Part shown: positions 740 through 63,522 of the stretch, in pieces
Position numbering within the stretch: position 1 is the first letter of the stretch
Layout of the letters: the number at the start of each line of letters is the position of its first letter
Virus record (IMG/VR): IMGVR_UViG_3300046473_000190
Coordinates: 1-64,000 of that record
From: a virus
Lineage: Duplodnaviria > Caudoviricetes
Length of the DNA stretch: 64,000 nucleotides
Reading direction: 5' to 3' (one strand)
Notes under the pieces: generated by a model
The model's input: only the letters and a program-made list of their open reading frames with translations
Databases searched by the model: none
What the model was told of the DNA's origin: nothing
Program-made: the position numbers and the translations under genes

Positions 740-1654
740 ATGCCCGTCGCATTAGCAAACATTCGGTCGGAATTGCTTCCTGGACTGTTCGATGTCCGCG
801 GCAGTTACGACATGATCCCACGGCAGTGGGACCGAGTCTTCACGACACGCCAATCGAACATGGCGGTCGAACGCTCGACGCAAATGGCGTTCGTAGCGTT
901 GCCGTACCTCAAGGATGAGGGGGCGGCAACACAGTTCGACAACAACTCCGGCGAGCGATTTACGTGGGCGTTCGTGCATCTTGAGGTCGCGCTGGGTTAC
1001 GCAATCACGCGCAAGGCCATTGATGACCTGCTTTACAAGCAGCAGTTCAATCCGACCAATCTGAAGCTTCAAGAGGCTTTCGCGCAGTTCAAGGAAATTC
1101 AGGCGGCAAACGTCCTGAATCTTGGGCAGACTTATAACGCTTCCATCGTTGGCGATGGTGTGGCGCTGTTCTCGGCCTCACATCCGTTCGATGGCGGAAC
1201 CTGGGCCAATACCTCGACTGTGCCCAAGAGCCTCAACGAATCGACGCTGTTGGCCGATATGACCAACGTTCGCACCCAGTTCGTCAACGAACGCGGCTTG
1301 CGTATTCTGTCGCGTGCCAGGCGTCTTGTGGTGCCGCCGAACCTCGAGCCGATCGCTATTCGGTTGACCAAGACGGAGCTTCGACCTGGTACGGCCGACA
1401 ACGATGTGAACGCCATCCTGACGCTTTCGGGCGGTCTGCCGGAAGGCTTCATCGTTTTGGACTTCCTCACGAGCAACTTCGCGTGGTTCCTGACCACGAA
1501 CATCGAAGGGCTCATCCACATGCTGCGCGTGCCATACGAGAGCGACATGTGGGTTGACAATATTACTGACAACCTGCTCGTAAAGGCCTACGAGCGTTAC
1601 AGTTTCGGGTACAACGACCCACGTGCAGCGTGGGGCGAGTTCCCATCTTCGTAA
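740..1654 (+). CDS. major capsid protein (Mu gpT-like family)
   Basis: 304 aa, RBS AAGGAG; N-terminal ELLPGL, LVVPPNL, FLTSNFAWFL and C-terminal VKAYERYSFGYNDPR resemble gpT-like capsid proteins. Confidence 0.8.
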   Translation: MPVALANIRSELLPGLFDVRGSYDMIPRQWDRVFTTRQSNMAVERSTQMAFVALPYLKDEGAATQFDNNSGERFTWAFVHLEVALGYAITRKAIDDLLYKQQFNPTNLKLQEAFAQFKEIQAANVLNLGQTYNASIVGDGVALFSASHPFDGGTWANTSTVPKSLNESTLLADMTNVRTQFVNERGLRILSRARRLVVPPNLEPIAIRLTKTELRPGTADNDVNAILTLSGGLPEGFIVLDFLTSNFAWFLTTNIEGLIHMLRVPYESDMWVDNITDNLLVKAYERYSFGYNDPRAAWGEFPSS

Positions 1655-3588: not shown

Positions 3589-4218
3589 ATGCAGCCAACT
3601 GTCGTCCAATATGGCCTGATCGCCAGTTCAACCACGGTCATTGTCAACAATTACAGCACGGCAACCACCATATTGCCGCTGGTGAGCATTCCAGTGACGC
3701 TGGATGTGCAGCGCCGCGTCAACTTCACGTTTGCCGCCAACGAAAGTGCAAACACGTTTCGTATTGTCGGCCTCAACCAGGCCAATATGACGATCAGCGA
3801 AACGATAACCGGCAGCAATGCAACGCAGCGAGAAACGCTGCTGGACTACTTCAAGATTATTTCCATCACGGCGGCCAGCAATATCGGCGGGGCGGTGTCG
3901 GTTGGAACCGATTCGAACGGCGGCAGTCTGTGGAACATCGTCAATTGGCACGTTACGCCGGTCAACATCCAATATGCCTGCATCTTGTCCGGAACGCTCA
4001 ATGCGACGTTCACAATTCAATATACGTATGACGATCCGAATAACCTGCCGGTTGGCGTGACGGCGCCGCAGGCATTCAATCATCCAACGATAACCAACCA
4101 GACAGCCACGATTGACGGCTCGTCTAACGATCCGATTACGGCGTGGCGTTTGCTGATTAGCGGCGGAACCGCTACGATACGCGCGATCGGCATTCAAGCT
4201 GGGATTGGCGGACCGTAA
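3589..4218 (+). CDS. putative structural protein
   Basis: 209 aa beta-rich ORF, RBS AGGAG, tightly packed operon. Confidence 0.5.
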   Translation: MQPTVVQYGLIASSTTVIVNNYSTATTILPLVSIPVTLDVQRRVNFTFAANESANTFRIVGLNQANMTISETITGSNATQRETLLDYFKIISITAASNIGGAVSVGTDSNGGSLWNIVNWHVTPVNIQYACILSGTLNATFTIQYTYDDPNNLPVGVTAPQAFNHPTITNQTATIDGSSNDPITAWRLLISGGTATIRAIGIQAGIGGP

Positions 4219-4832: not shown

Positions 4833-7800
4833 ATGGACGCAAGCGGCAACAATTCCCCCGATCTGGTAGTAACGACGCAGGGAACCGGCCCCGGCGAGCT
4901 TGTTTGGCTGGCGTCTGGCCAGCAGATTGCCGTTTCCGGTATCAGTATCAGCGGCATCAGCATTTCCGCTGGCCCTCAAACCACGACGCAGGCGTCCACA
5001 GGTGTCACCGGCGCTTTCGTCTGGCTGGCCGGCAGTCAGACGATATCGGTTCAGATTTCCGGGATTGCGCCGACGACGACGGCCAGCGGGATGTCTGGGG
5101 TTACCGGCGTCCCAGTCTGGGTGGCTAATCCGGGGTCCGGTAGCGGGGCAACCGCGTCGGCGACGTCCCAGAGTGCGATGTCCACCGGGCTTGGTGTCTG
5201 GCTGGCGCCTACTCAGACGGTGACGGCGGCTATCTCTGGGGTGGCTCCGACGACCACGGCAAGTGGCTTATCGGGTATTACAGGCCTTCCGGTTTGGGTG
5301 GCGAACCCTGGTTCAGGCAGCGGCGCTACGGCCTCGGCAACGTCGCAGAGCGCGATGTCCACGGCCTTGGGGGTCTGGTTAGCCCAAACGCAAACGATGG
5401 CCTTGGTGTCCACCGTAGCGACGCTGTTGGGCACTGTGGCGGTGTCGCAGGTCGCAGCGGTCAGCCTATCGAGCATTGCCGCTACGACAACGGCTAGTGG
5501 ACTCTCCGGCGTTACCGGCCTGCCCGTATGGGTCGCGAATCCCAGTACCGGAAGCGGCGCTACCGCCACATCGCAAAGCGCCATGTCTACAGCGTTGGGG
5601 GTGTGGCTCGCACCTACTCAGACGATATCGCTGGTATCCACGATCGTAACCGTGCTTGGCACTGCCGTGGTGTCGGTGGTGCCTGGCCTGTCCGTTTCGG
5701 CTGTTGTCTCCGGCACCGTCTCGTTGGTGACCGTTTCGACAATTGGGACGCTTTTGGGAACCGTTGCCGTTTCGCAGGTGGCTGCGGTAAGTCTGTCGGG
5801 GGCGGGTGCAACTGTAACTCAATCGAGCCTCACGACTGGTATTCCCGTTATTTTTGTCCAGACGCAGACGCTGGGCGCAGTCAACACCATCATTACCATT
5901 CTCGGCACCCAGGTTGTCAGCGTTGTGCCGGGTTTGTCGGTTTCGGCCGTCGTGTCTGGCACGGTTTCGCTAGCCACTATTTCCGGAACGACCACGGCTT
6001 CGGGCCTGTCCGGTGTTACAGGTCTTCCCGTTTGGGTTGCCAATCCAGGTTCGGGCAGTGGGGCCACCGCGTCCGCGACTAGCCAGAGTGCGATGTCTAC
6101 CGCCTTGGGCGTGTGGCTGGCCCCAACCCAAACGATGACTGTCACCGCCTTGATTAGCGGTGTGACGCCAACGACGACGGCGTCGGGCCTTTCCGGTGTC
6201 ACTGCCTTGCCCGTCTGGGTCGCGAATCCTGGCTCTGGCAGTGGTGCAACGGCTAGCGCGACCAGCCAAAGCGCCATGTCAACCGCTCTTGGCGTCTGGC
6301 TGGCCCAGACGCAGACCATGGCTTTGGTATCGACCGTTGGCACCATCCTGAACATTACGGTCGTTTCCACAGTCGTGACGGTGCTCGGCACCGTGGCGGT
6401 GTCCCAAGTCGCTGCGGTAAGCATCTCGAGCGTGGTAGCCACCACAACGGCCAGCGGCCTGTCTGGTGTTACCGGTCTACCGGTCTGGGTCGCGAATCCG
6501 GGTTCCGGCAGTGGGGCCACTGCGAGTGCAACATCGCAAAGCGCAATGTCTACGGCATTGGGCGTGTGGCTTGCTCAGACGCAGACGCTGTCCTTGGTAT
6601 CTACGATCGTTACTATTCTCGGCACGCAGATCGTTTCTGTCGTTCCTGGCCTATCGGTTTCTGCGGTGGTTTCGGGCACTGTCTCGCTGGCGACTATTTC
6701 TGGAACCACGACCGCATCCGGATTGTCGGGCGTTACCGGCTTGCCGGTATGGGTAGCGAACCCGGGCAGCGGAAGCGGCGCGACCGCGTCAGCCACTAGC
6801 CAAAGTGCCATGTCTACCGCACTTGGGGTATGGCTCGCTCAAACACAGACGCTATCGCTTATTTCAACGATTGTGACGGTGTTGGGAACCGTCTTGGTTT
6901 CTGAGGCGGGACCGGTTTCAATCTCTGGCATTGTCGTTACCACCACGGCTAGCGGCCTGTCGGGTGTCACAGGTCTTCCGGTCTGGGTAGCGAACCCCGG
7001 CTCAGGCAGCGGTGCCACCGCGTCAGCCACATCGCAGAGTGCGATGTCGACTGCGTTGGGCGTTTGGCTAGCGCAGACACAGACCCTATCGCTGGTGTCC
7101 ACCATCGTAACTGTGCTTGGCACGGTGTTGGTCAGTGAAGCCGGGCCAATTTCCATCTCGGGCATTGTACCGACCACGACCGCGTCTGGCCTGTCCGGCG
7201 TCACCGGCCTACCGGTATGGCAGGTTGGCGGTGGCAGCGGGGCGACGGCGACGGCTACCTCTCAGAGCGCCATGTCCACGGCCCTCGGCGTTTGGCTAGC
7301 CCAAACTCAGACCATGTCGCTGGTTTCCACCATCGTGACGGTGCTTGGCACGCAGGTGGTAACGGTTGTTCCAGGGTTGTCGGTGTCGGCGGTGGTCAGT
7401 GGTACGGTGTCGCTTGTCACGGTGTCCACGGTAGCTACCATCGTAACCCTACTCGGCACTGTGCTTGTCTCTCAGGTTCCTGGGGCGAGTGTTACTATTG
7501 GCGGCGCTGGTGCCACAACGACGCAGTCGAGCCTAACGACCGGCATTCCGATTGTTTTTGTGCAGACGCAGACTATCGGGGCTGTCAATACCATTGTGAC
7601 CATCCTCGGCACGCAGGTTGTCTCAGTCGTGCCTGGATTGTCTGTCTCGGCCGTCGTCTCCGGTACGGTTTCTTTGGTGACCGTGTCTACTGTGGCGACC
7701 ATCGTGACCCTGCTTGGCACGGTGCAGATCAGCGGCACGATCATCAACAGTGGTGCCACCACGACGCAGTCGAGCCTGACGACCGGACTTCCCGTCATTT

Positions 7801-9095
7801 TCGTTCAGACGCAAACCATCTCGCTGGTTTCCACCATCGTGACTATCCTTGGCACGCAGGTTGTCAGTGTGGTGCCTGGATTGTCCGTGTCTGCCGTTGT
7901 TTCCGGCACGGTTTCGTTGGTTACCGTATCCACGGTTGCGACCATCGTAACTCTACTCGGCACGGTACTTGTTTCTCAAGTCAATGCCGGATCAGTTCAG
8001 ATCTCCGGCATTGTGCCAACGACCACGGCGTCCGGGCTTTCCGGTGTCACCGGCTTGCCGGTCTGGCTGGTTGGCGGTAGCGGCGCCGCTGCAACGGCGA
8101 CATCGCAGAGTGCCATGTCAACGGCACTGGGCGTGTGGTTAGCGCCGACGCAGACAATGACTGTGGCGATTCAGACACTGGCCGGTACGACGACGGCTTC
8201 CGGCTTGTCAGGCATTACTGGACTGCCGGTTTGGATCGGCAACACGGTATCCGTCAGCGTTTCCGTGTCGGTGTCCATCAGTGGGCCAGCGCCTGCAACT
8301 GCCACCAGCCAGAGCGCGATGTCTACCGCGTTGGGTGTTTGGCTTGCCCAGACCCAGACTATGGCTGTTGTTTCCACCGTCGCCACTATTGTAACGCTGC
8401 TTGGCGTGGTGGCTATTAGTGGCACGATTGTCAACAGTGGAGCGACGACGACTCAGTCTAGCCTGACGACAGGGTTGGCTGTGCTTTTTGTCCAAACGCA
8501 GACGATGGCGATCGTATCAACGGTTGGAACCCTTGTAACGCTTTTGGCCGGCTCGGTCACGGTGACCGGGTTCTCGGCCTTCTCTGTGATGTTTTCCTCG
8601 TTTTCCGCCGAACAGTCGACTGGCGTTACTATTCAGCAGTCGGCCCAGGTCCCGGTGAATATTGCGGGAACCATTCTGTTGGCCGCCGCCGCGTCATCGT
8701 CGGTTCTTACGCCGTTTACTATCAACGTCGGCACTACCGCCGCGACGGTGACAAGTGCGTGGTCTATTCCGGCCACCAACTTTCGGCTATACGCAGTCAA
8801 TATCTTTGTCACCGGAGCAGGCGCGACAACGCCCACGGCGGGGTATTTCCAAGTGGCTTACTCGAGTGCCGGCACGACGGGGACGGCTACATCGCCGGCC
8901 ATCCTCAGCACCAAGCCGCAATTGGTAAAAATACCGATAGGGTTTGGACCGGCCGCGTTGTCGGTCGGTATTGTCGGCGGCCAGTTGGATATCGGTGGCG
9001 GTCTTACTCAAACCATCATGCTGTGGTTCAACTATCCGGGAACGACGAATACGTCGGCAACGATGATGTTTAACCTCTTGGGGTATCTGTTCTAA
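4833..9095 (+). CDS. giant Ser/Thr/Val/Gly-rich modular repeat protein, putative virion fibre/surface protein
   Basis: 1420 aa; 11 copies of TSQSAMST(A/G)LGVWLA(P/Q)TQT, 6 of VVPGLSVSAVVSGTVSL, 4 of TQSSLTTG...FVQTQT; about ten charged residues in total. Confidence 0.8.
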   Translation: MDASGNNSPDLVVTTQGTGPGELVWLASGQQIAVSGISISGISISAGPQTTTQASTGVTGAFVWLAGSQTISVQISGIAPTTTASGMSGVTGVPVWVANPGSGSGATASATSQSAMSTGLGVWLAPTQTVTAAISGVAPTTTASGLSGITGLPVWVANPGSGSGATASATSQSAMSTALGVWLAQTQTMALVSTVATLLGTVAVSQVAAVSLSSIAATTTASGLSGVTGLPVWVANPSTGSGATATSQSAMSTALGVWLAPTQTISLVSTIVTVLGTAVVSVVPGLSVSAVVSGTVSLVTVSTIGTLLGTVAVSQVAAVSLSGAGATVTQSSLTTGIPVIFVQTQTLGAVNTIITILGTQVVSVVPGLSVSAVVSGTVSLATISGTTTASGLSGVTGLPVWVANPGSGSGATASATSQSAMSTALGVWLAPTQTMTVTALISGVTPTTTASGLSGVTALPVWVANPGSGSGATASATSQSAMSTALGVWLAQTQTMALVSTVGTILNITVVSTVVTVLGTVAVSQVAAVSISSVVATTTASGLSGVTGLPVWVANPGSGSGATASATSQSAMSTALGVWLAQTQTLSLVSTIVTILGTQIVSVVPGLSVSAVVSGTVSLATISGTTTASGLSGVTGLPVWVANPGSGSGATASATSQSAMSTALGVWLAQTQTLSLISTIVTVLGTVLVSEAGPVSISGIVVTTTASGLSGVTGLPVWVANPGSGSGATASATSQSAMSTALGVWLAQTQTLSLVSTIVTVLGTVLVSEAGPISISGIVPTTTASGLSGVTGLPVWQVGGGSGATATATSQSAMSTALGVWLAQTQTMSLVSTIVTVLGTQVVTVVPGLSVSAVVSGTVSLVTVSTVATIVTLLGTVLVSQVPGASVTIGGAGATTTQSSLTTGIPIVFVQTQTIGAVNTIVTILGTQVVSVVPGLSVSAVVSGTVSLVTVSTVATIVTLLGTVQISGTIINSGATTTQSSLTTGLPVIFVQTQTISLVSTIVTILGTQVVSVVPGLSVSAVVSGTVSLVTVSTVATIVTLLGTVLVSQVNAGSVQISGIVPTTTASGLSGVTGLPVWLVGGSGAAATATSQSAMSTALGVWLAPTQTMTVAIQTLAGTTTASGLSGITGLPVWIGNTVSVSVSVSVSISGPAPATATSQSAMSTALGVWLAQTQTMAVVSTVATIVTLLGVVAISGTIVNSGATTTQSSLTTGLAVLFVQTQTMAIVSTVGTLVTLLAGSVTVTGFSAFSVMFSSFSAEQSTGVTIQQSAQVPVNIAGTILLAAAASSSVLTPFTINVGTTAATVTSAWSIPATNFRLYAVNIFVTGAGATTPTAGYFQVAYSSAGTTGTATSPAILSTKPQLVKIPIGFGPAALSVGIVGGQLDIGGGLTQTIMLWFNYPGTTNTSATMMFNLLGYLF

Positions 9096-9105
9096 CCAGA
9101 AAGGA

Positions 9106-9438
9106 ATGACAATGAGCTATTCGACAGCAACCCCCGAGCAACAGGCGATCGTCAAGAACTTCGTCCTGCTCGAGCGCGCTGCTACCGTACAGATGTGGCA
9201 ATTAAACAACACCATTGCTGCCTTGGTGCAAAACTGGAACGCTAGCGTGTTGGGCATTCTGGGGTCGCCGCAGGGTATTTCAATCCCTGACGGGACGAGC
9301 TATGCCGGGGCGACGACGTTGACCGACACACAGGTGACGAACCTATTTGGCATTTTGCAGACCATGCAGACGACGAATTTTACGCCATCCAACGAGGCAT
9401 TGTTTGTCTTGGCGACCGGCCCGAATAATATGCTGTGA
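9106..9438 (+). CDS. hypothetical protein
   Basis: 110 aa ORF with RBS AAAGGA, in operon. Confidence 0.6.
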   Translation: MTMSYSTATPEQQAIVKNFVLLERAATVQMWQLNNTIAALVQNWNASVLGILGSPQGISIPDGTSYAGATTLTDTQVTNLFGILQTMQTTNFTPSNEALFVLATGPNNML

Positions 9439-9462
9439 TCATGATTGCGAAGGAGCGGGTAA

Positions 9463-10749
9463 TTGGCAGCCAATGCAACAGCGATCTGGCGTGTTCGGCC
9501 GAGCGGGAGCGACAATAACGGCGGGGGCTATGATCCCGGCATTGCTAGCGCCGGCACGGACTTTTCGCAACAGGACGCCGCGCAGGTTACGCAATCCGCT
9601 GGCGTCGTATCGACGGCCACGACGACACTGACGGATACCGGTGCGTCATTTACCTCCGCGCTGATCGGCAACGGCATCCGGGTGGCGGGTACCGGAATTA
9701 CGACGACTTACACCTTTATTACCGCGGTGCCGAGCGGGACGACGTTGACGTTGCAGACCTCACCGGGCACGACGGGAACTTCGGTAACCTACAATATCGG
9801 CGGCGGGTGGGCGACTTTTTGGACGAACACGGCACCACTGGTTCCGGGAAATATCGTTTATATTCTGGGTTCCGGCACGCCGAACCCGGCCGCGTATACT
9901 TATGACTTCACGCTGCCGTCCGGCGGCATGCCGGCCGTCAATGGCAATACAACGGCAGGCAGGATTTATTTTGTCAACGACCCGGCTACCCCCGGCTACA
10001 AGGCACCGCCAGACACGACGGGCGGCATGCCAGTCATCAAGATTGCAAACGGCAACGGTTTTAGCGCCGGCGGCGCATCATTTTATTCCGTATTCGGACT
10101 ATATTTGGTTTCCTTGATTGCTGGCAGCGGTGTTTTCGCCAGCCAAACCAACATGACGCTGTTTGGAACGGTTATCGATTTTTTTGGCAATGATTCATGG
10201 GGTACGGTCAACTGTCCTTATCTTACCACGCTGGGCTGCGAATTCTTTTCGTCGCAGGGCGGCACCGGAACGCGGTCCGCCATTCGGACTTATATCGACG
10301 CGACGATCATAAATTGCAATTTTCACGATCTGCCTGGACACGGCGTGCATATGACCGGAAACGCCACGATTAACGGAAGTGTGCTTGCAAAAAACGTCCT
10401 CAACGGGCTCTTGATGGATCAATCGCAGGGGACGGGAAACAACGACGCACAAAACAACACCATCGACGGCAATGCAGGTCATGGCATCGAGATTGTCGAT
10501 CAGGGCAGTGTCGCCTATGCGGTCATTCTCAATAACATCATCAGTAATCAAGTCGGCGCCGGGAAATTCGGCCTGACGGCCGACGTCGGGACGGCCGCGG
10601 CCAATACGCAGGTTGCGAATTTCATCGACTATAATGTGTATTACAATAATACCGCGAACTACAATGCAATCAACGCTAGTCCGCACGACACCGCGCTCGG
10701 TGTTGACCCATACGTAGCCTCGTCTACAGAAAACTATACGTTGAAGTAA
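9463..10749 (+). CDS. right-handed beta-helix (pectin-lyase-like) spike/fibre protein
   Basis: C-terminal repeats NCNFHDLPGHGV, NNTIDGNAGHGIEI, NNIISN, DYNVYYNN; TTG start after AAGGAG. Confidence 0.7.
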   Translation: MAANATAIWRVRPSGSDNNGGGYDPGIASAGTDFSQQDAAQVTQSAGVVSTATTTLTDTGASFTSALIGNGIRVAGTGITTTYTFITAVPSGTTLTLQTSPGTTGTSVTYNIGGGWATFWTNTAPLVPGNIVYILGSGTPNPAAYTYDFTLPSGGMPAVNGNTTAGRIYFVNDPATPGYKAPPDTTGGMPVIKIANGNGFSAGGASFYSVFGLYLVSLIAGSGVFASQTNMTLFGTVIDFFGNDSWGTVNCPYLTTLGCEFFSSQGGTGTRSAIRTYIDATIINCNFHDLPGHGVHMTGNATINGSVLAKNVLNGLLMDQSQGTGNNDAQNNTIDGNAGHGIEIVDQGSVAYAVILNNIISNQVGAGKFGLTADVGTAAANTQVANFIDYNVYYNNTANYNAINASPHDTALGVDPYVASSTENYTLK

Positions 10750-11447
10750 TGCCCAGCGTTCTCTCATACGCCAACGCCTTCCCGATGGACAACGTGCTGG
10801 CGCGAAATTTCAATGGCACAAGTGAATTCGCCTCTGCGGGAGCCACGGGCTCGGGTGCGCAAACAGGATTGACTGTCGCTTGGTGGGTTTATTTGAATGC
10901 GCTTCCGGCATCCGCTTTCGCCGGATTGATTACACTTTCGAATCCAACTTGGCTGTTTTATGTAGAGAGCAACGGAACTATTGCTTTCCAGACTGGAACC
11001 GTTACCGCAATGAACCTTGTCACGTGCAATCCGTGGCCAAGTGCGTCAACGCTCGCGGTCGGCCAATGGTATCATATGGCGGTGACGGGTGACGGGGCGA
11101 CAGTGACGCTTTATATAAATGGTGCGGTGAACGGGACGCCGCAGACCGTTACGAGTGCTTCTGGCACGAATTTCGGGGCGGCAATGTTTGCCGACGACCT
11201 CACGTCTACTACTCGATATGTACCTTGCCAGTTGGTTGATATCGCCATTTGGGATGTTTGCCTAAGCGCCGGTCAAGTGCTTTTGCTTGCGCACGGAGCG
11301 CGTGCAGCATCAATTGCAACGGGCCTGAAGAATAACTGGGTGATGACTGGAGCCTCGCCGGAACCGGATTCGGTTGGCGGAGCCAACGCGACACTCACCG
11401 GAACATCAACTTTGAACGGCGGCCCCGCTACGTTGGGGTTGGTGTGA
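10749..11447 (+). CDS. LamG/concanavalin A-like lectin domain protein
   Basis: TVAWWVY..., GQWYHMAVTGDGATVTLYING, DIAIWDVCLSAGQV. Confidence 0.8.
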   Translation: MPSVLSYANAFPMDNVLARNFNGTSEFASAGATGSGAQTGLTVAWWVYLNALPASAFAGLITLSNPTWLFYVESNGTIAFQTGTVTAMNLVTCNPWPSASTLAVGQWYHMAVTGDGATVTLYINGAVNGTPQTVTSASGTNFGAAMFADDLTSTTRYVPCQLVDIAIWDVCLSAGQVLLLAHGARAASIATGLKNNWVMTGASPEPDSVGGANATLTGTSTLNGGPATLGLV

Positions 11448-11716
11448 TGGCCGGCGTTCCACTTCCTCAACATTTATCTGGGCAGAGCCTGGTCTACAAC
11501 TATCTCTTTCCTGGCGGATTGCAGCCCTTGGCGACTGGGCTTTCTGTACTGTCCTATACGAAAGCCTTTCCGAACATTACGTTACCGCAGCATTTGTCTG
11601 GGCAAACAGCCGTGGAAAGCTATCTCTATCCAGGCGCATTGCAGCCGTTACAAATTGCTGCGCTTGCTGGATATCCTGTAACGTGGACTATCACCATCAC
11701 CATAACAATGGATTAG
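11444..11716 (+). CDS. small protein with internal duplication
   Basis: LPQHLSGQSLVYNYLFPGGLQPL repeated as LPQHLSGQTAVESYLYPGALQPL. Confidence 0.6.
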   Translation: MMAGVPLPQHLSGQSLVYNYLFPGGLQPLATGLSVLSYTKAFPNITLPQHLSGQTAVESYLYPGALQPLQIAALAGYPVTWTITITITMD

Positions 11717-11720
11717 ACAT

Positions 11721-13508
11721 ATGACTGCACAATACATGATCGTTCCTGCTGCTGGTGCCGAGCCCGCTGATGAATGGGTAAAGCTTGGCGTCGAGGCGCA
11801 GATGGGCAACCGCCCTGCTGATGCCGCCCGTCACTACCTCAAGGCCCTCGGCATTGATCCATCGCACGTCATTGCGACGCTCAACCACGGCATTACCCTA
11901 GCTACCCAGGGCGACCTTAACCAGGGAATGCTGACGCTGGAACGCGCCATGCTGTTCGATGATAAATCGGCCGCCGTGCGAATGAATTATGCTATGATGT
12001 GCCTTAACGCAGGCCGCATCGACGAGGCCATGAAATATGGCGAACTCGCCATCGAGATGGGGAAAACCGACGAAGGGAACCTTGGCAAGACGGCTCCCAA
12101 ACTGGTGATGGCGCTGATCCTGGGGGCTGCGGGTCATTCGGACAGAGCGGTTCCGCTGTATAATGAAATTCTCGATGACGAACCGGATCACCTTCAGGCC
12201 GGAATGAATTCCTGTTTTGCGCAAACTTTGACGTTTGCCACACCGGAAGATTTGTTGCGGCAGCGCAAGCGGTTTTATGACTCCGTCAAGTTCAAGGGTA
12301 CCGTCCGCCGGGTTCGCCACGACGAGGCATGGCCTCGTCCCTTGCGTGTTGGATATGTCGGGGGCGATTTCAAGCAGCATTCAGCCGCGATGATCTTCGG
12401 TAACGTATTGCTTAATCACGACAAAACGAGAGTCCTGCCGTATTTCTATTCGTCATTAGCGGTAAACCCGGATGCCGATCCGTGGTCGAAAGAGTTCAAG
12501 GCGGCGGCGGAAGACCGCTGGCGCGATATCGAAGGCAAGAGCGATGACGATACCGCTGACATGATCCGCGACGACAAGATCGATATTCTGGTTGACATCG
12601 CCGCCCATACCAGTGGCGGACGATTACCGATATTCGTGCGGAAACCGGCCCCTATCCAGGTCACGGCGTGGGGCTTTGCCCACGGGACGGGCGTGCCGGA
12701 AATCGACTACTTCTTTGCCGATGAGGTGTCCGTGCCGCAGGAGGAACGGCAGTGGTTTGCGGAAAAAATCTGGGATCTGCCGTGCCTGGTAACGTTCCGG
12801 AAGCCGAAATACGTGTTTAAGGAAAATTCGCTACTGCCGTATGCGGGTAATGGCTACATCACTTTCGGGTCATCGGCGCGTTACGAAAAGCTGTCCGAGG
12901 CGTGCCTGCGGTGTTTTGCCAAGATCCTGCATAGAGTGCCGGATTCTGTCTTGCGGCTGAAGGATAGCGCCTATGGCAGGCCCTATTCGATTCGTCGGGT
13001 TCTCGACATCATGAAGGGGTTCGACATTGGGCGGGAAAGAATTCAGTTCATCATCGGCTCGAGCCATGAGGAGCACTTGCAGGGTTATCGCAACAGCGAC
13101 TTGCAGCTAGACCCGTTCCCTCACGGCGGCGGCATTGTCAGCCTGGAGCAGCTTTACATGGGGCTGCCGATTATTACGCTCTATGGAACCCAATGCTCTG
13201 GCCGGAATACCGCAAGCGTGCTGACATGCATGGGGCGAGGCGACTGGATTGCCCGCTCGGAGGACGAATACGTCGAAAAGGCCGTCGCATTGGCTAACGA
13301 CATCGAAATGCTCCGATCCGCCAGAAAGACGCTGCGGAGCGAATTGATGGATTCGCCGGTGGTGAAAGACTATTGCAAGGTCGTCGAGCGGGCCTACCAG
13401 GCCATGTGGTGCAAGTATTGCGGCTATAATGTTCCGGCCGAGGATGCTAGTATGGCCGAGGAGCACACCGTCGTAAGGCTTAAGACGAAGAAGGAGATGG
13501 CGGGATGA
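11721..13508 (+). CDS. TPR-containing GT41 glycosyltransferase (OGT/SPINDLY-like)
   Basis: N-terminal TPR-like helices; LRVGYVGGDFKQHS, IDILVDIAAHTSGGRLPIFVRKPAPIQV, FGSSARYEKL, LDPFPHGGGIVSLEQLYMGLPIITL match GT41 motifs, including the conserved His and Lys. Confidence 0.9.
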   Translation: MTAQYMIVPAAGAEPADEWVKLGVEAQMGNRPADAARHYLKALGIDPSHVIATLNHGITLATQGDLNQGMLTLERAMLFDDKSAAVRMNYAMMCLNAGRIDEAMKYGELAIEMGKTDEGNLGKTAPKLVMALILGAAGHSDRAVPLYNEILDDEPDHLQAGMNSCFAQTLTFATPEDLLRQRKRFYDSVKFKGTVRRVRHDEAWPRPLRVGYVGGDFKQHSAAMIFGNVLLNHDKTRVLPYFYSSLAVNPDADPWSKEFKAAAEDRWRDIEGKSDDDTADMIRDDKIDILVDIAAHTSGGRLPIFVRKPAPIQVTAWGFAHGTGVPEIDYFFADEVSVPQEERQWFAEKIWDLPCLVTFRKPKYVFKENSLLPYAGNGYITFGSSARYEKLSEACLRCFAKILHRVPDSVLRLKDSAYGRPYSIRRVLDIMKGFDIGRERIQFIIGSSHEEHLQGYRNSDLQLDPFPHGGGIVSLEQLYMGLPIITLYGTQCSGRNTASVLTCMGRGDWIARSEDEYVEKAVALANDIEMLRSARKTLRSELMDSPVVKDYCKVVERAYQAMWCKYCGYNVPAEDASMAEEHTVVRLKTKKEMAG

Positions 13509-13825
13509 AACCTTGGCTGATTCTGGCGGGGGGTATCATTCTGGGCCTTTTGGCCCACAATGCTATGCCCGTCTTTGTCGATTATGTGTTTGCGGCCGAT
13601 GCGTCTGGCAGCAATACCCGGCCATTTGGGTCGTTTCCCGCTTTGACATTCGCCACCTTGCCGCCCGCGGTAACCGGGACGATGGCTTATATCAGTGACG
13701 GGGCGGCTGGAAACTGTGGCGACGGCACCTGCACGACGTTCGGCACCACTGTCACCGGCGGCGGAGGTTCGGTTAAAATACTGGCATGGTGGAATGGTAG
13801 CAACTGGACGCTGGTCGGTAAATGA
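13505..13825 (+). CDS. small hypothetical protein with N-terminal hydrophobic segment
   Basis: ATGA overlap; hydrophobic N-terminus; C-terminal WWNGSNW. Confidence 0.55.
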   Translation: MKPWLILAGGIILGLLAHNAMPVFVDYVFAADASGSNTRPFGSFPALTFATLPPAVTGTMAYISDGAAGNCGDGTCTTFGTTVTGGGGSVKILAWWNGSNWTLVGK

Positions 13826-14517
13826 CATCGAGTGGCACATTTAACTTTGTCCCATCGAACGGCGAACTTGTCCTCGCCGCATTCGAGCGCATTCAGGTGC
13901 GTGCGCCGGAGATACGGCAGGAACATATGTTTTCCGCCCGCCGTGAGTTGAACTTCATGTTCGCGCAATGGTCGAACAAGCAACCCAACCTTTGGGAAGT
14001 TCTTCGTACCCAAACCGTGCTGACGGCTGGGACCGCTACCTATGCGATCTCGCCGCAAACGGTCATGATCCTTGACGCCTCGATTGTGCTTAATATCGGC
14101 ACGCCATCGGAATCCCGTCGCTACATCACTCCGATCTCCCGCACTGAATACCTGAGTTACGCCAATCAGCAGACGCCGGGACCGCCGACTGTGTATTGGT
14201 TTGATCGCCTGATTTCGCCCACCATCACGTTTTATCCGGTGCCCGACAATGCTGGACCGTATACCTTCGACTACTTCACCTGTCTCCAGATGCAAGACGC
14301 CAACATGGCGGGCGGAGAGACGCCTAATGTTCCTTATCGTTGGTTCGATGCTATTGTCGCTGGCATGGCGCACCGTCTCGCGCGGATTTACGCGCCGCCG
14401 CTCGAGCAGATAAGGAAAGCGGACGCAGACGAGGCTTGGACGGTAGCGGCGACGCAGGATGTGGAATCGGTTCCTTTGGTATTAGCGCCCGGCTTGTCGG
14501 CCTATTACCGGAGATAG
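13822..14517 (+). CDS. head-tail adaptor/completion protein (podovirus gp4/tube A-like)
   Basis: 231 aa; AAFERIQV, WSNKQPNLWEV, ISRTEYLSYANQQTPGPPTVYWFDR; position. Confidence 0.6.
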   Translation: MTSSGTFNFVPSNGELVLAAFERIQVRAPEIRQEHMFSARRELNFMFAQWSNKQPNLWEVLRTQTVLTAGTATYAISPQTVMILDASIVLNIGTPSESRRYITPISRTEYLSYANQQTPGPPTVYWFDRLISPTITFYPVPDNAGPYTFDYFTCLQMQDANMAGGETPNVPYRWFDAIVAGMAHRLARIYAPPLEQIRKADADEAWTVAATQDVESVPLVLAPGLSAYYRR

Positions 14518-17485: not shown

Positions 17486-18844
17486 ATGCCCGCCGCTCCC
17501 GGCACCATACCGGCACTGCCGCGATACCAGCCCGATGCCCTGCCGTTGGCTGGGACGGAGGTGTTGGAAATTGCTTCCAATTACACCGCTTACACGGCCG
17601 CGGTCAGCGGTGCCATGCCCCTGCAGGACGTGGTAGGCAAAACGCCGTCCATCATGTCAACCGCGGTTCCGGTTGCCGGCGACATGGTGGCCTTCTATCA
17701 ACTGTCGAGCGGCCTGCCGAGGGCCTGCTCGGTTGCCAACCTTGGCGTTCCAGCCGGGAACATTCCGTCTGGTGGCTCGACCCATCAAGTCTTGGCCAAG
17801 AATAGCGCGACGAACTTCGATACGGGTTGGTACAGCACCATCAGCCTCCTGGCGACGGCGTTCCAGACCACGACCTTGACGCAGAATGGTATTCTATACG
17901 GCAATGGCACGTCTTTGCTGGGAATAACCCCACAGGGAACATCGGGTTATTTCCTGGGCGGCAATGGCGCGGCGGCGCCGACATTCCAACAGGTCAACTT
18001 GACCACGGGCGCTACCGGCGTGCTGACGCAGACTTTTGGCGGCTTGGGCACGGCGTCCTTGGCCTCGCATGCGGTGATTCTCGGCAGCACGGGGGCGGCG
18101 GTGGCCGCAGCGGCACCAGGCAATGTCGGCCTCGCGCTGATTTCCAACGGCTCAACCAGCGATCCATCGTTTCAGGCGGTTCCGCTGACAACCGGGGTTT
18201 CCGGTGTGCTTCCGGTCGCCAACGGTGGCATCGGCACGTCTGTGCTAGCCTCACACGGGATTGTTCTCGGCAGCACAGGGGCCTATGCGGTCGTGCCGTC
18301 GACGACGGCCAACCTGTTTCTTGTCAGTGGCGGACCTACAGCCGACCCGATTTATACCACGGGCGGCTTTGGGCCAGCCGCCACGGCTGCGCTGGGCAAC
18401 ATTCCAGGCGCGACGGCCAGCACGCCGGCCGCAGCTGGCAGCATTGGCGAATATACGACGGCCAATTTAACGTCCGGCGGGGCATTGAGCCTTTCGACCG
18501 CGTCAGTGGCGACGACGCTCATCAGCCTTGCGCTTGGTTCCGGCGACTGGAATGTGTTCGGTTCGGTGACGTATTTTGCCACCAATACCACAACCAACGC
18601 CAAGATACTCGCTGCGGCCGTAAATAACCTGTCCAATGCCCTGCCGAACTTCACCTCGGGTGCCATCCATCAATTGGGTCTTGGCAGCGCGGGCTTGACC
18701 GCCATCCAAACAACCATTCTGCCCATCGGACCCGTGCAGTTCATTTCCAGCGCGGTACAAACGGCCTACCTTATTGCTGCGGTGAACTTCACTAACGCCA
18801 CCATGGGCGGCTTCGGCGTTATTGCGGCAAGGCGGGCACGCTGA
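17486..18844 (+). CDS. tail fibre-like protein
   Basis: G/T/A/S-rich with GVLPVANGGIG and GVLTQTFGGLG fibre repeats. Confidence 0.65.
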   Translation: MPAAPGTIPALPRYQPDALPLAGTEVLEIASNYTAYTAAVSGAMPLQDVVGKTPSIMSTAVPVAGDMVAFYQLSSGLPRACSVANLGVPAGNIPSGGSTHQVLAKNSATNFDTGWYSTISLLATAFQTTTLTQNGILYGNGTSLLGITPQGTSGYFLGGNGAAAPTFQQVNLTTGATGVLTQTFGGLGTASLASHAVILGSTGAAVAAAAPGNVGLALISNGSTSDPSFQAVPLTTGVSGVLPVANGGIGTSVLASHGIVLGSTGAYAVVPSTTANLFLVSGGPTADPIYTTGGFGPAATAALGNIPGATASTPAAAGSIGEYTTANLTSGGALSLSTASVATTLISLALGSGDWNVFGSVTYFATNTTTNAKILAAAVNNLSNALPNFTSGAIHQLGLGSAGLTAIQTTILPIGPVQFISSAVQTAYLIAAVNFTNATMGGFGVIAARRAR

Positions 18845-19569: not shown

Positions 19570-20268
19570 ATGTCGGAACCAACCACTCCAAATATTGGCC
19601 TTATCGTACCCAACACGGGAGATTTGCCGGGAGCTTGGGGCACCTCGGCCGTCAATCCGAACATGTCGGCCATTGACGGGCTGTTCGGTGGAACGGTGAC
19701 TCTCACGCTGTCTGGAGCAACCACGGTCACTTTGACATCGTCCACGGCAGTATTGACGCCCGCAGGCGGACCGTTCCAGCAGAACAATGCCTGTATTTTT
19801 ATTACGGGCTCGCAGAGTGCCAATGCGGTTATCAAGTTCAGTCAGCCGGGACGGTATATCGTCAACAACCAAATTTTTAATGCTCCGCCGAGCGACCTCT
19901 ATGTGCAACTTTCCCCGGCTACAGGGACAGGCCGTTCCATTGGAGCGCCAGCCGGCCAGAAAATAACTGTGTTTTTCGATGGCGCTCATATGGATTACGT
20001 GGACTCGTTCCCCATAGGGGGGTTGCTGCCGGTCTTTACGGGAAACCCGTCCGAGGAGCCGCCATGGTGGGCGGCGTGCTCGACCTCCCCGTTCCTTTTT
20101 TGCAATGGGAGTGTTTACAATGTCGTTGATTATCCAGCGCTTGGTGCAATGCTAGGCAGCGCTTATGGCGGCAATGGTGTGACAACGTTCGCCGTTCCGA
20201 CAGCCAATAGCACGTTTATCACGCACGCCGCTCAAGGTCTCGATTCCTTCATTTATATCAAGACATGA
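19570..20268 (+). CDS. tail collar domain protein
   Basis: FLFCNGSVYNVVDYPALGAMLGSAYGGNGVTTFAVP matches the phage tail collar motif. Confidence 0.8.
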   Translation: MSEPTTPNIGLIVPNTGDLPGAWGTSAVNPNMSAIDGLFGGTVTLTLSGATTVTLTSSTAVLTPAGGPFQQNNACIFITGSQSANAVIKFSQPGRYIVNNQIFNAPPSDLYVQLSPATGTGRSIGAPAGQKITVFFDGAHMDYVDSFPIGGLLPVFTGNPSEEPPWWAACSTSPFLFCNGSVYNVVDYPALGAMLGSAYGGNGVTTFAVPTANSTFITHAAQGLDSFIYIKT

Positions 20269-22308: not shown

Positions 22309-22309
22309 C

Positions 22310-22684
22310 ATGGCATCGGCCGACGAAGTCAATTCGACGCTCAAGAATCTCGTCAGCAATGTCGGGTTGCTTGTCAACGGCACGGCTTTGATTAATGCGG
22401 TTAACGCCATATCCAGCACATTGGCGACGTCGTTGGCGACGGTGCATGGTTTTGGCGGATCGGCAGTCATGCCGGCGGCAGTTGCTTCCGTGGTTATTGG
22501 CAACGCGCAGTTGGCCAGCACAGGGGTTATAAGTTTTTCACCTGGGAACACCGGGGCGGCCACGACGGTTTTTACGGCCGGCGTATATGTCGGGCCGATT
22601 ACGGCCGGAAGCTTCTCGCTGGTTGTCAATACCGGATCGTCTGTATCGTCCGGCTTATTCTACTATGTCGGCTATAACCCATAA
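22310..22684 (+). CDS. hypothetical protein
   Basis: ORF 22286..22684; ATG at 22310 follows the previous stop. Confidence 0.55.
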   Translation: MASADEVNSTLKNLVSNVGLLVNGTALINAVNAISSTLATSLATVHGFGGSAVMPAAVASVVIGNAQLASTGVISFSPGNTGAATTVFTAGVYVGPITAGSFSLVVNTGSSVSSGLFYYVGYNP

Positions 22685-50065: not shown

Positions 50066-50298
50066 AAGCCGATGACCAAATCTTTACCACTCCCGGCGTT
50101 GTTTTAAATCGCATTGCGTCGGTGTTCCACTGTCCGAAGGATCGGATTGAGGAGGTATTGGAGGAACTTATGGAGCGGCCGATAGAGAGGGCGGCGGGGT
50201 CCGAGGCCAGGCTAGCGGTTATTCGGCGGGCTTTGAACACGCCGGAGGCAGCGAGTGTGATTGAGATGGCGCAGGTGTTTTGGGATGGGGCGAAGTGA
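50062..50298 (+). CDS. hypothetical protein
   Basis: ATGA overlap; 78 aa. Confidence 0.5.
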   Translation: MKADDQIFTTPGVVLNRIASVFHCPKDRIEEVLEELMERPIERAAGSEARLAVIRRALNTPEAASVIEMAQVFWDGAK

Positions 50299-53470: not shown

Positions 53471-53660
53471 CCGACCCACTAGGGATGAGATTGTCAAGGT
53501 GTTGCGCGATCTTGGCAACCTGCCTGCAGGCAAGTCCTATTGGGGGCCGGGAGATGGTCCAGACAATGACGGAATGTGGTGTATCGATTGGGTAGGATGG
53601 CCGATTTCTGATTATTTACTAGCGGCGGCTGACGAGATCGAGAAAGCGAAAGATGGCTGA
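53463..53660 (+). CDS. hypothetical protein
   Basis: overlapping starts/stops; AAADEIE motif shared with the previous ORF. Confidence 0.5.
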   Translation: MADRPTRDEIVKVLRDLGNLPAGKSYWGPGDGPDNDGMWCIDWVGWPISDYLLAAADEIEKAKDG

Positions 53661-62148: not shown

Positions 62149-63522
62149 ATGCACGGGCCGCTTAAGGATAGGCTTGTACTTTGCCATGGGTGCTTTGACC
62201 TATTGCATTTGGGTCATATACGCCATTTGCAGGAGGCAAGAGCCCTTGGTGATCGTCTGATTGTCAGCGTGACGGCGGATCGGCACGTTCAAAAGGGCCT
62301 AGGACGCCCGCATTTCAGCGAAAATGAGCGTGTCGAGGCGCTAAAGGCGCTGGATTGCGTGGACGATGCCTTTGTGTGCCAGTTTGGGACGGGCGCGGAG
62401 GTGATCGAGGCCATTCGGCCTGCCGTTTACTGCAAGGGCATTGATTACGCCGATCAGGTGGCTACGAATCCCTATACGCAGGCTGAAATTGCTACGGTAA
62501 CCGCTTATGGCGGCGAGTTTCACGTCACCAAGGCGCAGAAGTACTCGTCGTCGCGGCTGTTGAACGCGCAACGGCTGTCATCCGAGGCGGCGGAATATCT
62601 AGCGGGCGTTCGCAGTAGGGGGTTTCTCTCCGAAATCAAGGATGCGATGGCAAAAGCCGACGAATTGACCATCGGCTTTGTCGGGGAACAGATCATCGAC
62701 GAATATCGCTATGTCAGAGCCCTTGGGAAGCCTTCCAAGGAGTTTATTCTGGCTACGGTGGCGGACCACACCGAGCAATACAACGGCGGCGTAGAGGCCG
62801 CAGCGGCCCAATGTGAGTGGCGCGGGGCAAAAATCGTAACGGCGGGGGAACCGCTGACCAAGGTTCGGTATGTCGATGCGGATTTCAACAAGAAGCTGTT
62901 CGAGGTTTATTCGGGTCATAGTGTCGGTCTCGAGGGCGCTGCTCGTGATACCTTTCGCAGTCTGTTATGGGATGCTGTTCGTACTTGTGATTTACTGGTG
63001 GTCTTTGATTTCGGCCATGGCTTGTTTGGGGCAATTGAACGGGCGCAAATCAACGAAGCGCGGTGCGTTGCCGTCAACGTACAGACGAACGCCGGGAACG
63101 TAGGATTCAATCCCGTGGTCAAGTATCAGCAGGCTAACTTGGTCTGCATTGACGAACCGGAAGCACGGTTTGCGACGCGGCGGCAGTGGGAACCGATGAT
63201 TGACGTGCTTGGGGGTTTGTCGAGGCACTTCATGGGTGCTAAAATCATGGTGACACATGGACGACAAGGCGCAGTCGTTTGGAATGACTTGGCGCAATGC
63301 ATCACACAAATCCCAGCTTTTGCTACTCAAAACGCTGATACAATTGGTGCCGGAGACGCCTTTCTTTCGGCCGCTGCACCGCTGGTTGCTGTGGGCCTTG
63401 ACTCGGAGATTGCTGCGTTCGTTGGCAATGTGGCAGGTGCGCTCAAAACACAAATTATCGGACATCGACGGCATGTTACGCGAACCGAACTGATGACGAA
63501 TGTGGAGGCGTTGTTGGCATGA
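62149..63522 (+). CDS. bifunctional cytidylyltransferase / PfkB-family sugar kinase (HldE/RfaE-like, reversed domain order)
   Basis: HGCFDLLHLGHIRHL (HxGH), YCKGIDY; DFGHG, DTIGAGDAF. Confidence 0.85.
   Translation: MHGPLKDRLVLCHGCFDLLHLGHIRHLQEARALGDRLIVSVTADRHVQKGLGRPHFSENERVEALKALDCVDDAFVCQFGTGAEVIEAIRPAVYCKGIDYADQVATNPYTQAEIATVTAYGGEFHVTKAQKYSSSRLLNAQRLSSEAAEYLAGVRSRGFLSEIKDAMAKADELTIGFVGEQIIDEYRYVRALGKPSKEFILATVADHTEQYNGGVEAAAAQCEWRGAKIVTAGEPLTKVRYVDADFNKKLFEVYSGHSVGLEGAARDTFRSLLWDAVRTCDLLVVFDFGHGLFGAIERAQINEARCVAVNVQTNAGNVGFNPVVKYQQANLVCIDEPEARFATRRQWEPMIDVLGGLSRHFMGAKIMVTHGRQGAVVWNDLAQCITQIPAFATQNADTIGAGDAFLSAAAPLVAVGLDSEIAAFVGNVAGALKTQIIGHRRHVTRTELMTNVEALLA

Follow-up and report, generated by a model that had tools for sequence, protein, structure and literature searches.

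A phage TPR-GT41 glycosyltransferase paired with a giant, nearly charge-free Ser/Thr-rich protein: a candidate module for virion O-glycosylation

Introduction

Virion glycosylation, which affects immune recognition and stability, is known from few phages only. The locus described here raises the question of whether a tailed phage may carry an enzyme, a dedicated substrate and a sugar pathway for this purpose. It occupies positions 4833-13508 of a 64,000-nucleotide stretch of viral DNA (hereafter the window; bases 1-64000 of IMG/VR record IMGVR_UViG_3300046473_000190). The source is an uncultivated soil or groundwater phage, whose 72,964-bp record is ~100% complete by CheckV. An earlier note on this DNA had pointed to a glycosyltransferase of family 41 (GT41) with tetratricopeptide repeats (TPR), encoded near a giant serine/threonine-rich (S/T-rich) protein, and had proposed that the enzyme decorates this protein or other S/T-rich spikes. 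On the computational evidence collected below, we consider it fairly probable that the locus encodes a protein O-glycosylation system for a virion fibre. Full-text literature searches found no phage GT41, no dedicated giant acceptor family and no linked heptose-type sugar pathway, which suggests that the GT41 enzyme family has apparently not been reported in phages before.

The GT41 enzyme

The putative glycosyltransferase matches the Pfam family Glyco_transf_41 (PF13844) with 131.6 bits against a cut-off of 25 (E 3.6e-38; profile positions 80-222 and 375-540), a strong hit in the hidden Markov model search that the earlier note had named as a check. TPR families of Pfam match residues 15-160; the TPRs are placed at approximately residues 15-165 and the catalytic domain at approximately residues 199-573. 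Among solved structures, Arabidopsis SPINDLY is the best relative (7y4i, E 7e-69), followed by Thermobaculum TtOGT (5djs, 3e-49), human OGT (1e-42) and XcOGT (4e-24), with HMW1C matched weakly. Residues 135-573 align continuously to SPINDLY 408-851, covering the connector and both catalytic lobes; human OGT aligns in two stretches only, the better one being residues 387-573.

Residues described in the SPINDLY structure paper (PMC9715652) were transferred to the phage enzyme by alignment. The essential donor-phosphate lysine K665 of SPINDLY (K842 in human OGT), the loss of which abolishes activity (PMC9715652), is kept as K390, together with the active-site residues D491, H495 and S496 of the N-Cat lobe (phage D216, H220 and S221) and H728, which stacks on the base (phage H452). 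K390, D216, H220 and S221 are invariant in 18 of 18 viral homologues, K390 does not vary in 20 close homologues either, and four of the 18 have Gln at position 452. The donor site has changed instead. Y744, at the donor-size position, is replaced by H468; the phosphate contacts T747-T749 by G471-I472-V473; a further phosphate contact, N661, by A386; A664, which lies near the donor and corresponds to Tyr841 in human OGT, by E389; and N662, a residue not analysed in PMC9715652, by R387. The donor-phosphate Thr pair (T748/T749 in SPINDLY, T921/T922 in human OGT) reads I472 and V473 here and [VI][VT] throughout the viral clade, in which the Gly-rich loop and H468 are invariant (18 sequences). In SPINDLY, T748 contacts the donor phosphate and its mutation strongly reduces activity, Y744 is critical for GDP-fucose use, and the latter position, Cys in OGT, Tyr in XcOGT and TtOGT and Phe in HMW1C, has been proposed to set pocket size and donor choice (PMC9715652). 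The earlier description of an OGT/SPINDLY-like GT41 with intact motifs holds for family membership and for the catalytic Lys, His, Ser and Asp; it fails for the donor site, where both the Thr pair and the donor-size Tyr are replaced.

Judged by these alignments, the viral enzymes look like a clade of working enzymes under purifying selection, with a predicted donor pocket that matches no characterised GT41. Orthology with SPINDLY was rejected on the donor-size Tyr, which is His throughout the viral clade. Orthology with OGT was rejected as well, since human H498, Y841, C917 and H920-T921-T922 become F166, E389, H468 and Gly-Ile-Val (OGT equivalences were derived via the SPINDLY alignment and PMC9715652).

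Among 87 homologues, the 18 viral GT41s (42-70% identity) share the pattern [A/G/W]R[Y/F/H]EK ... H ... G[G/A]G[V/I][V/T], and typical cellular SPINDLY-like proteins read NN..K ... Y/F ... (T)TT. The 18 form one clade in a FastTree phylogeny (SH support 100). A larger clade of 28 members (SH 99) encloses it and also takes in another small viral group and seven alphaproteobacterial sequences with the viral-type His/Gly-loop signature. The best cellular match in 185,579 species-representative genomes reaches only 35-39% identity, and at least 539 homologues are present in metagenomes. Several relatives have two GT41 paralogues (L011 and L016 on one 79-kb contig; L005 and L024 on one 47-kb contig; L013:2939-4774 and 9986-11773), one beside the giant open reading frame (ORF) and the other among sugar genes; the L024 copy belongs to a distinct viral clade, with ~33% identity to the window enzyme.

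The giant protein and its C-terminal knob

The giant protein contains 10 charged residues in total (D3 E4 K2 R1; 0.7%), no His and no Cys, and Ser and Thr make up 31.4% of it (T 241, V 213, S 205, A 167, G 165). This bears out the earlier note, which had described a nearly charge-free S/T-rich repeat protein of 1420 aa, and the composition extends to the family: in the bodies of 75 relatives, median S+T is 26.7% and charged residues have a median of 1.9% and a maximum of 6.6%, which indicates that charge depletion is a selected family trait. The protein has no Pfam and no PHROG match. It consists of an 80-residue N-terminal segment, a repeat body and a non-repetitive C-terminal domain. The body is encoded by tandem DNA repeats with a period of 234/243 and includes the repeat peptides TTTASGLSGVTGLPVWVANP and ATSQSAMSTALGVWLAQTQT; a position profile of 199 W-centred repeats from 16 proteins gives the family-wide core TTT..Q...[S/T]G..VWLAPTQT. 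The GXY periodicity of BclA-type collagen is absent from the repeat listing of the giant protein. No signal peptide is evident, consistent with modification by a cytoplasmic enzyme. Two long ORFs in other frames of the gene (7217-8080, + strand, 287 aa; 5819-6520, - strand, 233 aa) are most likely by-products of the GC-rich repeats and not genes.

The last ~150 residues can be aligned across all charge-free ORFs near GT41s, with a PAGKxFR motif and a terminal GYLF(P). An AlphaFold model built with the family alignment shows an all-beta jelly roll (pLDDT, the predicted local confidence, 73; pTM 0.67). VIA-align matched it to a nanovirus coat protein, a small viral coat jelly roll (Z 10.4), to 4-1BBL (Z 10.3; root-mean-square deviation 3.0 over 125 residues), APRIL (Z 9.5), a tail chain of cyanophage A4 (Z 9.5), the C1q domain of Caprin-2 (Z 8.8), the receptor-binding protein of lactococcal phage 1358 (Z 8.6) and the BclA and F-BclA knobs (Z 7.7-8.0). 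Foldseek returned the same fold class, including a cyanophage short-tail-fibre domain, BxpB, Bdellovibrio fibre tips, CD40L and RANKL. The model thus places the knob in the TNF/C1q-like jelly-roll fold class, at the C-terminal end of a putative fibre; only the fold class is assigned, because viral coat-protein jelly rolls score as well as TNF ligands. A knob profile search of 1.84 billion representatives recovered 185 proteins, 109 of them at E <=1e-10, in which the knob is always C-terminal; the ESM Atlas gave unnamed viral clusters only, all below 0.9.

A short N-terminal motif, ..VAxDxxGGxxYQxVKLxxG.., is common to most members; in 16 loci this motif and the knob show 20-67% identity, and by these shared ends the giant proteins are one family. 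An N-terminal anchor, a repeat shaft of variable length (365-1855 aa) and a C-terminal knob would make up the usual anatomy of a phage fibre, and the knob fold together with the gene position points to a virion protein. The window protein starts (4833-4880) ~35 residues later than its closest homologues (L003:3140, L007:4410) and lacks most of their N-terminal segment MADPxGRNSPP...GG.DAS.NLQPL, so its virion-attachment end may be shortened or may have been annotated from another start.

Linkage of the two genes

An alignment-based scan of IMG/VR for the enzyme yielded 24 loci (a single-protein scan gave none). A charge-free (1-4% DEKR), S/T-rich (24-32%) ORF of 365-1855 aa lies upstream on the same strand in 16 of them. 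The other eight are uninformative: L010, L015, L020, L021, L022 and L023 are cut short upstream, and the contigs of L016 and L024 have the giant ORF elsewhere, these two loci being second GT41 copies. In other words, every IMG/VR contig with enough upstream DNA (16/16) has the giant ORF upstream of GT41. The two genes directly adjoin each other in 6 (L004, L007, L008, L012, L013, L014) and are elsewhere up to 5.2 kb apart; they also adjoin in the metagenome contigs L105-L108.

From the other side, a pattern scan was built from a five-sequence subset of the knob alignment. In IMG/VR, 8/8 contigs that it found carry GT41, all of them already known to do so. In metagenome contigs it found 14 short contigs, with GT41 0-1.7 kb downstream in eight; the remaining six break off at most 1.6 kb from the knob, and the informative ones therefore all have GT41 (8/8). 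The scans, which covered 2.9 million viral and 241 million metagenome contigs, turned up no case against the pairing. The independence of this knob-side result is limited, as the patterns derive from known members. The co-occurrence of GT41 and the giant protein is near-obligate and exceeds chance. The genomic linkage on which the earlier note had made its proposal depend is present when approached from both partners, in related and unrelated phages alike. Loci L005, L008, L011-L014, L017-L019, L025 and L026 have no other detectable genes in common with the structural block of the window, and the occurrence of the pair on unrelated backbones suggests that it moves as a cassette. Among 50,697 GenBank phage records, tblastn found no match for GT41 or the knob, nor did the window DNA have a match.

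Sugar-activation genes

A cluster of sugar genes begins near the end of the window and was followed beyond it in the rest of the record (62000-72964, L027). Its first product, HldE-like, has a cytidylyltransferase-like domain followed by a PfkB domain, a swapped order; its best NCBIfam matches are rfaE_dom_II (100.8 vs 181.5 bits) and rfaE_dom_I (49 vs 345 bits), both below cut-off. The cluster also holds a GmhA-like isomerase, a pair of thiamine pyrophosphate (TPP) enzymes resembling E1 alpha and E1 beta, and a radical S-adenosylmethionine (SAM) enzyme of the SPASM type (Table 1). The E1-like proteins, about half the size of pyruvate dehydrogenase E1 subunits and conserved with the module, may make a ketose-phosphate precursor or add a two-carbon branch to the sugar.

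The HldE halves, E1 alpha, E1 beta and the radical SAM enzyme have homologues near the pair in L006, L008, L009, L011, L013, L014, L024 and L026, and HldE-like homologues adjoin GT41 or the giant gene in L006, L008, L011, L013, L014 and L024. The gene order is giant, GT41, nucleotidyltransferase, kinase in L014, and radical SAM, nucleotidyltransferase, giant, GT41, E1 alpha, E1 beta in L008. In whole records, the radical SAM gene was matched in 5/5, the HldE-like gene in 4/5 and the GmhA-like gene in 4/5, including all three that are >=90% complete; in G005 the GmhA-like gene adjoins the HldE-like gene. The cluster's GT1-like transferase and methyltransferase are not maintained as part of the module. 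Its most conserved member is the radical SAM protein (50-74% identity), with the peptide maturase SkfB as best solved relative (weak, E 4.4e-5). In GenBank phages the radical SAM gene has only distant matches (20-32% identity), and the HldE-like gene is matched through its nucleotidyltransferase domain only, in cyanophages. In several phages the HldE-like gene is split into two, flanking or following GT41; swapped or split forms lie at 62149-63522 in the window and at L014:11647-12976, L006:7464-8345 and L008:6650-7114, and E. coli HldE has the reverse order.

Since the pair is accompanied by GmhA-/HldE-like, E1-like TPP and radical SAM genes, the enzyme's donor is probably a nucleotide sugar of heptose type that the phage makes itself, and the TPP and radical SAM enzymes that accompany the HldE/GmhA-like genes suggest a modified or larger sugar. 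It is this product, a nucleotide-activated heptose-type sugar, possibly further modified, that GT41 would probably use. The earlier note had held that the sugar donor cannot be read from sequence. That statement can be relaxed in part, as the GmhA-like, HldE-like, TPP and radical SAM genes suggest the kind of sugar.

A cellular cluster of similar make-up was found in a Rhodospirillales metagenome-assembled genome (MAG; JAJFII010000017.1, L090:3320-21325). Its signature-sharing GT41 is clustered with a radical SAM enzyme, an NAD-dependent sugar epimerase, a swapped HldE-like gene, a TPP enzyme, a methyltransferase and B12-radical SAM enzymes. No charge-free giant ORF was found in this MAG and no obvious S/T-rich acceptor near the cluster. 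The phage sugar module may descend from such a bacterial cluster or have its counterpart in it.

Gene layout and genome context

All genes of the 4833-13508 block are present and co-oriented on the + strand (Table 1). As the earlier note had placed it, the block lies between capsid genes and the head-tail adaptor, with the PHROG_371 head protein upstream and the SU10_adaptor match downstream. The Laminin_G_3 match likewise establishes the fold of the protein that had been called a LamG lectin, with lectin activity putative. The beta-helix protein fares less well: the signal is plausible and weak, at 24 bits below the Beta_helix cut-off of 25.9. Homologues of this 428-aa protein (39-44% identity) stand between the giant gene and GT41 in L018, L019 and L020, and homologues of the LamG protein occur in L003 and L011. 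Sequence searches of the PDB with the beta-helix-like and LamG proteins returned no informative match, and relaxed Pfam scans of the small neighbouring ORFs returned none.

Table 1. Features of the locus and of the linked sugar cluster, in window positions unless stated otherwise
Feature	Position	Strand	Remarks
Major head protein	740-1654	+	PHROG_371 E 4.7e-7; upstream limit of the structural block; 90% identity in L007
Small head-region ORFs, several	between major head protein and giant ORF	+	
Giant charge-free S/T-rich repeat protein, 1420 aa	4833..9095	+	proposed glycosylation substrate and virion fibre
Repeat body of giant protein	5073..8522	+	~15 units of 56-168 aa, few shuffled modules
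C-terminal knob of giant protein, ~150-170 aa	8583..9092	+	ends in GYLF; alignments, AlphaFold, VIA-align
Low-charge ORF, 110 aa	9106..9438	+	without family match
Low-charge protein, 428 aa	9463..10749	+	weak right-handed beta-helix signal; possible spike/fibre accessory
LamG/concanavalin-like domain protein, 232 aa	10749..11447	+	Laminin_G_3 E 2.9e-19; PHROG virion structural and baseplate matches
Low-charge ORF, 90 aa	11444..11716	+	homologous domain directly upstream of GT41 in L015 and L018 (BLAST 53%, 43%)
TPR-GT41 protein glycosyltransferase, 595 aa	11721..13508	+	Pfam PF13844 and TPR families
Low-charge ORF, 106 aa	13505..13825	+	between GT41 and adaptor
SU10-type head-tail adaptor	13822..14517	+	SU10_adaptor E 1.3e-10; downstream limit, followed by tail genes
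Terminase	50280-52025	+	
Portal	53653-55881	+	
HldE-like bifunctional sugar nucleotidyltransferase/kinase	62149..63522	+	first sugar-cluster gene; CTP_transf_like 3e-16 and PfkB 3e-10
GmhA-like SIS protein	beyond window (L027)		best match gmhA/phosphoheptose isomerase, 69-70 bits vs cut-offs 209-276 (TIGR00441)
E1 alpha-like (195 aa) and E1 beta-like (176 aa) TPP pair	record 64776-65890 (L027:2777-3891)		
Radical SAM/SPASM enzyme	beyond window (L027)		sugar cluster
GT1-like transferase	beyond window (L027)		only extra glycosyltransferase confirmed in sugar cluster
SAM methyltransferase	beyond window (L027)		sugar cluster

Almost all proteins of this phage that are presumed to lie on the outside of the virion (115-726, 1678-2949, 3589-4218, 9106-11716, 13505-13825, 17486-18844, 19570-20268, 22286-22684) are strongly charge-depleted (4-8% D+E+K+R) and S/T-rich (17-22%); the capsid, the adaptor and the enzymes are 17-33% charged. 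The entire particle surface, beyond the giant protein, seems to be under selection against charge.

In the close relative G002 the sugar cluster directly precedes the capsid genes, so that a single uninterrupted late block there spans the sugar genes, the head genes, the giant ORF and GT41. In the present record the sugar cluster is found at the right end (62.1 kb to ~71 kb) and the capsid genes at the left end; a contiguous late block exists here only if the ends of the record join, and IMG/VR classes the record as linear, with no end repeats. A tRNA search of this phage found none. The alphaproteobacterial sister sequences of GT41 and one 9-kb MAG contig labelled Pyrinomonadaceae provide hints only as to the host.

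Proposed mechanism and alternative explanations

In the mechanism that we propose, the sugar cluster would be expressed late and would make a nucleotide-activated sugar of heptose type, possibly branched or further modified, in the host cytoplasm, using the GmhA-like isomerase, the HldE-like kinase/nucleotidyltransferase, the E1 alpha/beta-like TPP enzymes and the radical SAM/SPASM enzyme, here perhaps also the GT1-like enzyme and the SAM methyltransferase. The TPR domain of GT41 would grip the extended repeats of the giant protein, and the enzyme would transfer the sugar to Ser/Thr hydroxyls in the TTT...[S/T]GxxVWLAPTQT repeats. The modified protein might then trimerise via its TNF/C1q-like knob and be mounted on the particle by its short N-terminal segment as a long glycan-coated fibre, the glycans supplying the solubility and surface chemistry that a nearly charge-free polypeptide is missing.

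Several points weigh against this mechanism. With T748 replaced by Ile/Val and Y744 by His, the phage GT41 could behave unlike any GT41 studied. A GmhB-type phosphatase was not found, and the HldE-like and GmhA-like scores lie far below the NCBIfam equivalog cut-offs, so that "heptose" denotes the nearest named chemistry only. The radical SAM/SPASM enzyme could act on protein and not on sugar, and the GT1-like enzyme could be the user of the phage-made sugar. AlphaFold gave no confident model of the repeats (pLDDT ~30 in a run of repeats plus knob), and neither the fold of the shaft nor the exposure of Ser/Thr can be read from it. Both the glycosylation and the incorporation of the giant protein into the virion are computational predictions.

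Of the other explanations, the one that deserves most weight, although we regard it as unlikely, assigns GT41 to other low-charge S/T-rich virion proteins (spikes, the LamG protein, capsid decoration) or to host proteins, with the giant ORF as a cassette neighbour. OGT and SPINDLY are multi-substrate enzymes (PMC9715652), many outer virion proteins of this phage are likewise S/T-rich and charge-poor, and 1-4 other low-charge genes stand between the giant ORF and GT41 in several loci. Yet the intervening genes differ between phages and the giant knob protein is the constant partner, directly adjoining GT41 in the IMG/VR and metagenome loci named above, and knob-anchored searches always recover the enzyme. 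It is distinctly less probable that the TPR-GT41 protein is mainly a non-catalytic fibre chaperone or assembly factor and that the sugar cluster serves another purpose, such as modification of the host envelope. Tail-fibre assembly proteins and chaperones are typically encoded just downstream of fibre genes, and the GT41 gene likewise follows a fibre-like gene. The phage enzyme lacks the Thr pair that binds phosphate in SPINDLY and OGT, and TtOGT and XcOGT have little or no activity in vitro (PMC9715652). Against a chaperone, 18 viral sequences with 42-70% identity all keep the catalytic Lys, His, Ser and Asp and the Gly-rich loop, which is the pattern expected of an enzyme, and sugar-activation genes co-localise with GT41 both in phages and in the cellular cluster.

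We give marginally less credence again to the radical SAM/SPASM enzyme as the main modifier of the giant protein (e.g., by epimerisation or C-methylation, in proteusin-like fashion), with GT41 and the sugar genes secondary. That enzyme is the most conserved protein of the module, its best solved relative, at a weak E 4.4e-5, is a peptide maturase, and Val, Thr, Ala, Gly and Ile abound in the giant protein. However, the giant protein offers no Cys for thioether links, a leader or recognition element of the type seen in ribosomally synthesised and post-translationally modified peptides was not found, and the neighbours of the radical SAM gene, sugar genes in phages and an NAD-dependent sugar epimerase in the cellular cluster, speak more for chemistry on a sugar. 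Scarcely credible, finally, is the view of the giant ORF as a non-functional open frame left by GC-rich tandem DNA repeats. The gene does contain DNA repeats of 234-243 bp and long overlapping ORFs in other frames, and its product has no family match; but its GC content at third codon positions (0.67) equals that of neighbouring genes, 16 loci and 185 representative clusters conserve the N-terminal motif and the knob, each time in one frame with a charge-free body, and the knob folds at pLDDT 73. The artefact was rejected on the GC content and on the conserved in-frame knob and N-terminal motif.

Glycosylation of a virion fibre by GT41 is the reading that we prefer. A wider generalisation, namely a widespread mobile "glyco-fibre" cassette in which the viral GT41 clade, its predicted donor pocket unlike those of OGT and SPINDLY, uses a phage-made heptose-type (possibly branched or methylated) donor to build a hyper-O-glycosylated, nearly charge-free trimeric fibre of up to 1855 aa, is put forward tentatively, as an idea that we rate at somewhat less than even.

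Significance

If this wider generalisation is true, the enzyme would be the first GT41 with a donor other than a UDP- or GDP-hexose, the locus would hold the first dedicated enzyme-substrate-donor glycosylation module described in phages, and tailed phages of soil and groundwater bacteria would bear a mucin-like glycoprotein appendage. The module appears self-contained, with a sugar-activation pathway, a TPR-GT41 and a giant, presumably dedicated acceptor; it has spread across unrelated phage backbones and, though abundant in metagenomic data, is absent from the GenBank phage records. It offers a defined candidate enzyme-substrate pair for studying donor and acceptor choice in GT41, and it points to a donor outside the known set of UDP-GlcNAc, GDP-fucose and UDP-glucose. 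It also poses a question of protein chemistry, that is, how a 1400-residue polypeptide with ten charges stays soluble and functional. Environmental phages may bear mucin-like glycan appendages, which could shape adsorption and persistence in soil and groundwater.

Comparison with known systems

The nearest characterised enzyme is the Arabidopsis protein O-fucosyltransferase SPINDLY (PDB 7y4i, 8dtf), which has the same TPR plus bilobal GT-B architecture without the intervening domain of OGT, the same residues at K665, D491, H495, S496 and H728, and a non-His residue at L439 (F166 in the phage). The phage enzyme differs in having only ~4-5 TPRs, in the replacement of Y744 by His, of T747-T749 by Gly-Ile-Val and of N661 and A664 by Ala and Glu, and in Arg at 387; GDP-fucose is not implied, as these donor-site residues differ. 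Its gene, unlike that of SPINDLY, is virus-borne and paired with one putative dedicated substrate gene. On the donor side, the closest counterpart is the HldE/GmhA pathway for ADP-heptose of the Gram-negative lipopolysaccharide core, from which the best NCBIfam matches (rfaE_dom_I, rfaE_dom_II and gmhA) come. The phage genes depart from it in scores far below the cut-offs, in the reversed domain order, in a protein that is split in some phages and in the lack of a detected GmhB.

Phage virion glycosylation is known, as cited in PMC11256854 (Freeman et al., 2023, Cell Host Microbe 31:1216). Mycobacteriophages resemble the system proposed here in that phage-encoded glycosyltransferases O-glycosylate the phage's own virion proteins. 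The mycobacteriophage enzymes are reportedly non-GT41 transferases that act on short C-terminal extensions of capsid and tail-tube subunits. To our knowledge, those systems include no TPR-GT41, no giant dedicated substrate and no such phage sugar-activation pathway.

The Bacillus BclA/F-BclA exosporium and Ena-tip fibres share with the giant protein a long repeat filament with a TNF/C1q-like knob at its end (fold match Z 7.7-8.0), which is trimeric in the Bacillus fibres. They differ in their collagen-like GXY triplets, as opposed to the TTT..VWLAPTQT-type beta-rich units here, and in their glycosyltransferases. BclA is heavily O-glycosylated, and the analogy draws on this and on the knob fold.

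Two bacterial systems offer precedents for the proposed chemistry. In Caulobacter, the TPR domain of FlmG (596 aa) binds flagellins and its GT-B domain O-glycosylates them in the cytoplasm (PMC7591256). As would be the case in the phage, a soluble TPR plus GT-B enzyme modifies a filament subunit before assembly with a donor from a dedicated pathway; FlmG differs in its pseudaminic acid donor, its flagellin substrate and its cellular origin, and the likeness to the phage enzyme is one of domain architecture. TibC heptosylates Ser in beta-helical autotransporter repeats from ADP-heptose (PMC4358343). TibC and AAH, bacterial autotransporter heptosyltransferases, parallel the phage system in the hyper-O-glycosylation of Ser in long, imperfect, beta-rich adhesin repeats with ADP-heptose made by HldE (PMC4358343). 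They form an iron-binding dodecameric family distinct from GT41 and draw on the host lipopolysaccharide heptose pool, unlike the phage, where a heptose donor is suggested by the linked genes. Taken together, the FlmG and TibC analogies support the mechanism proposed for the phage locus.

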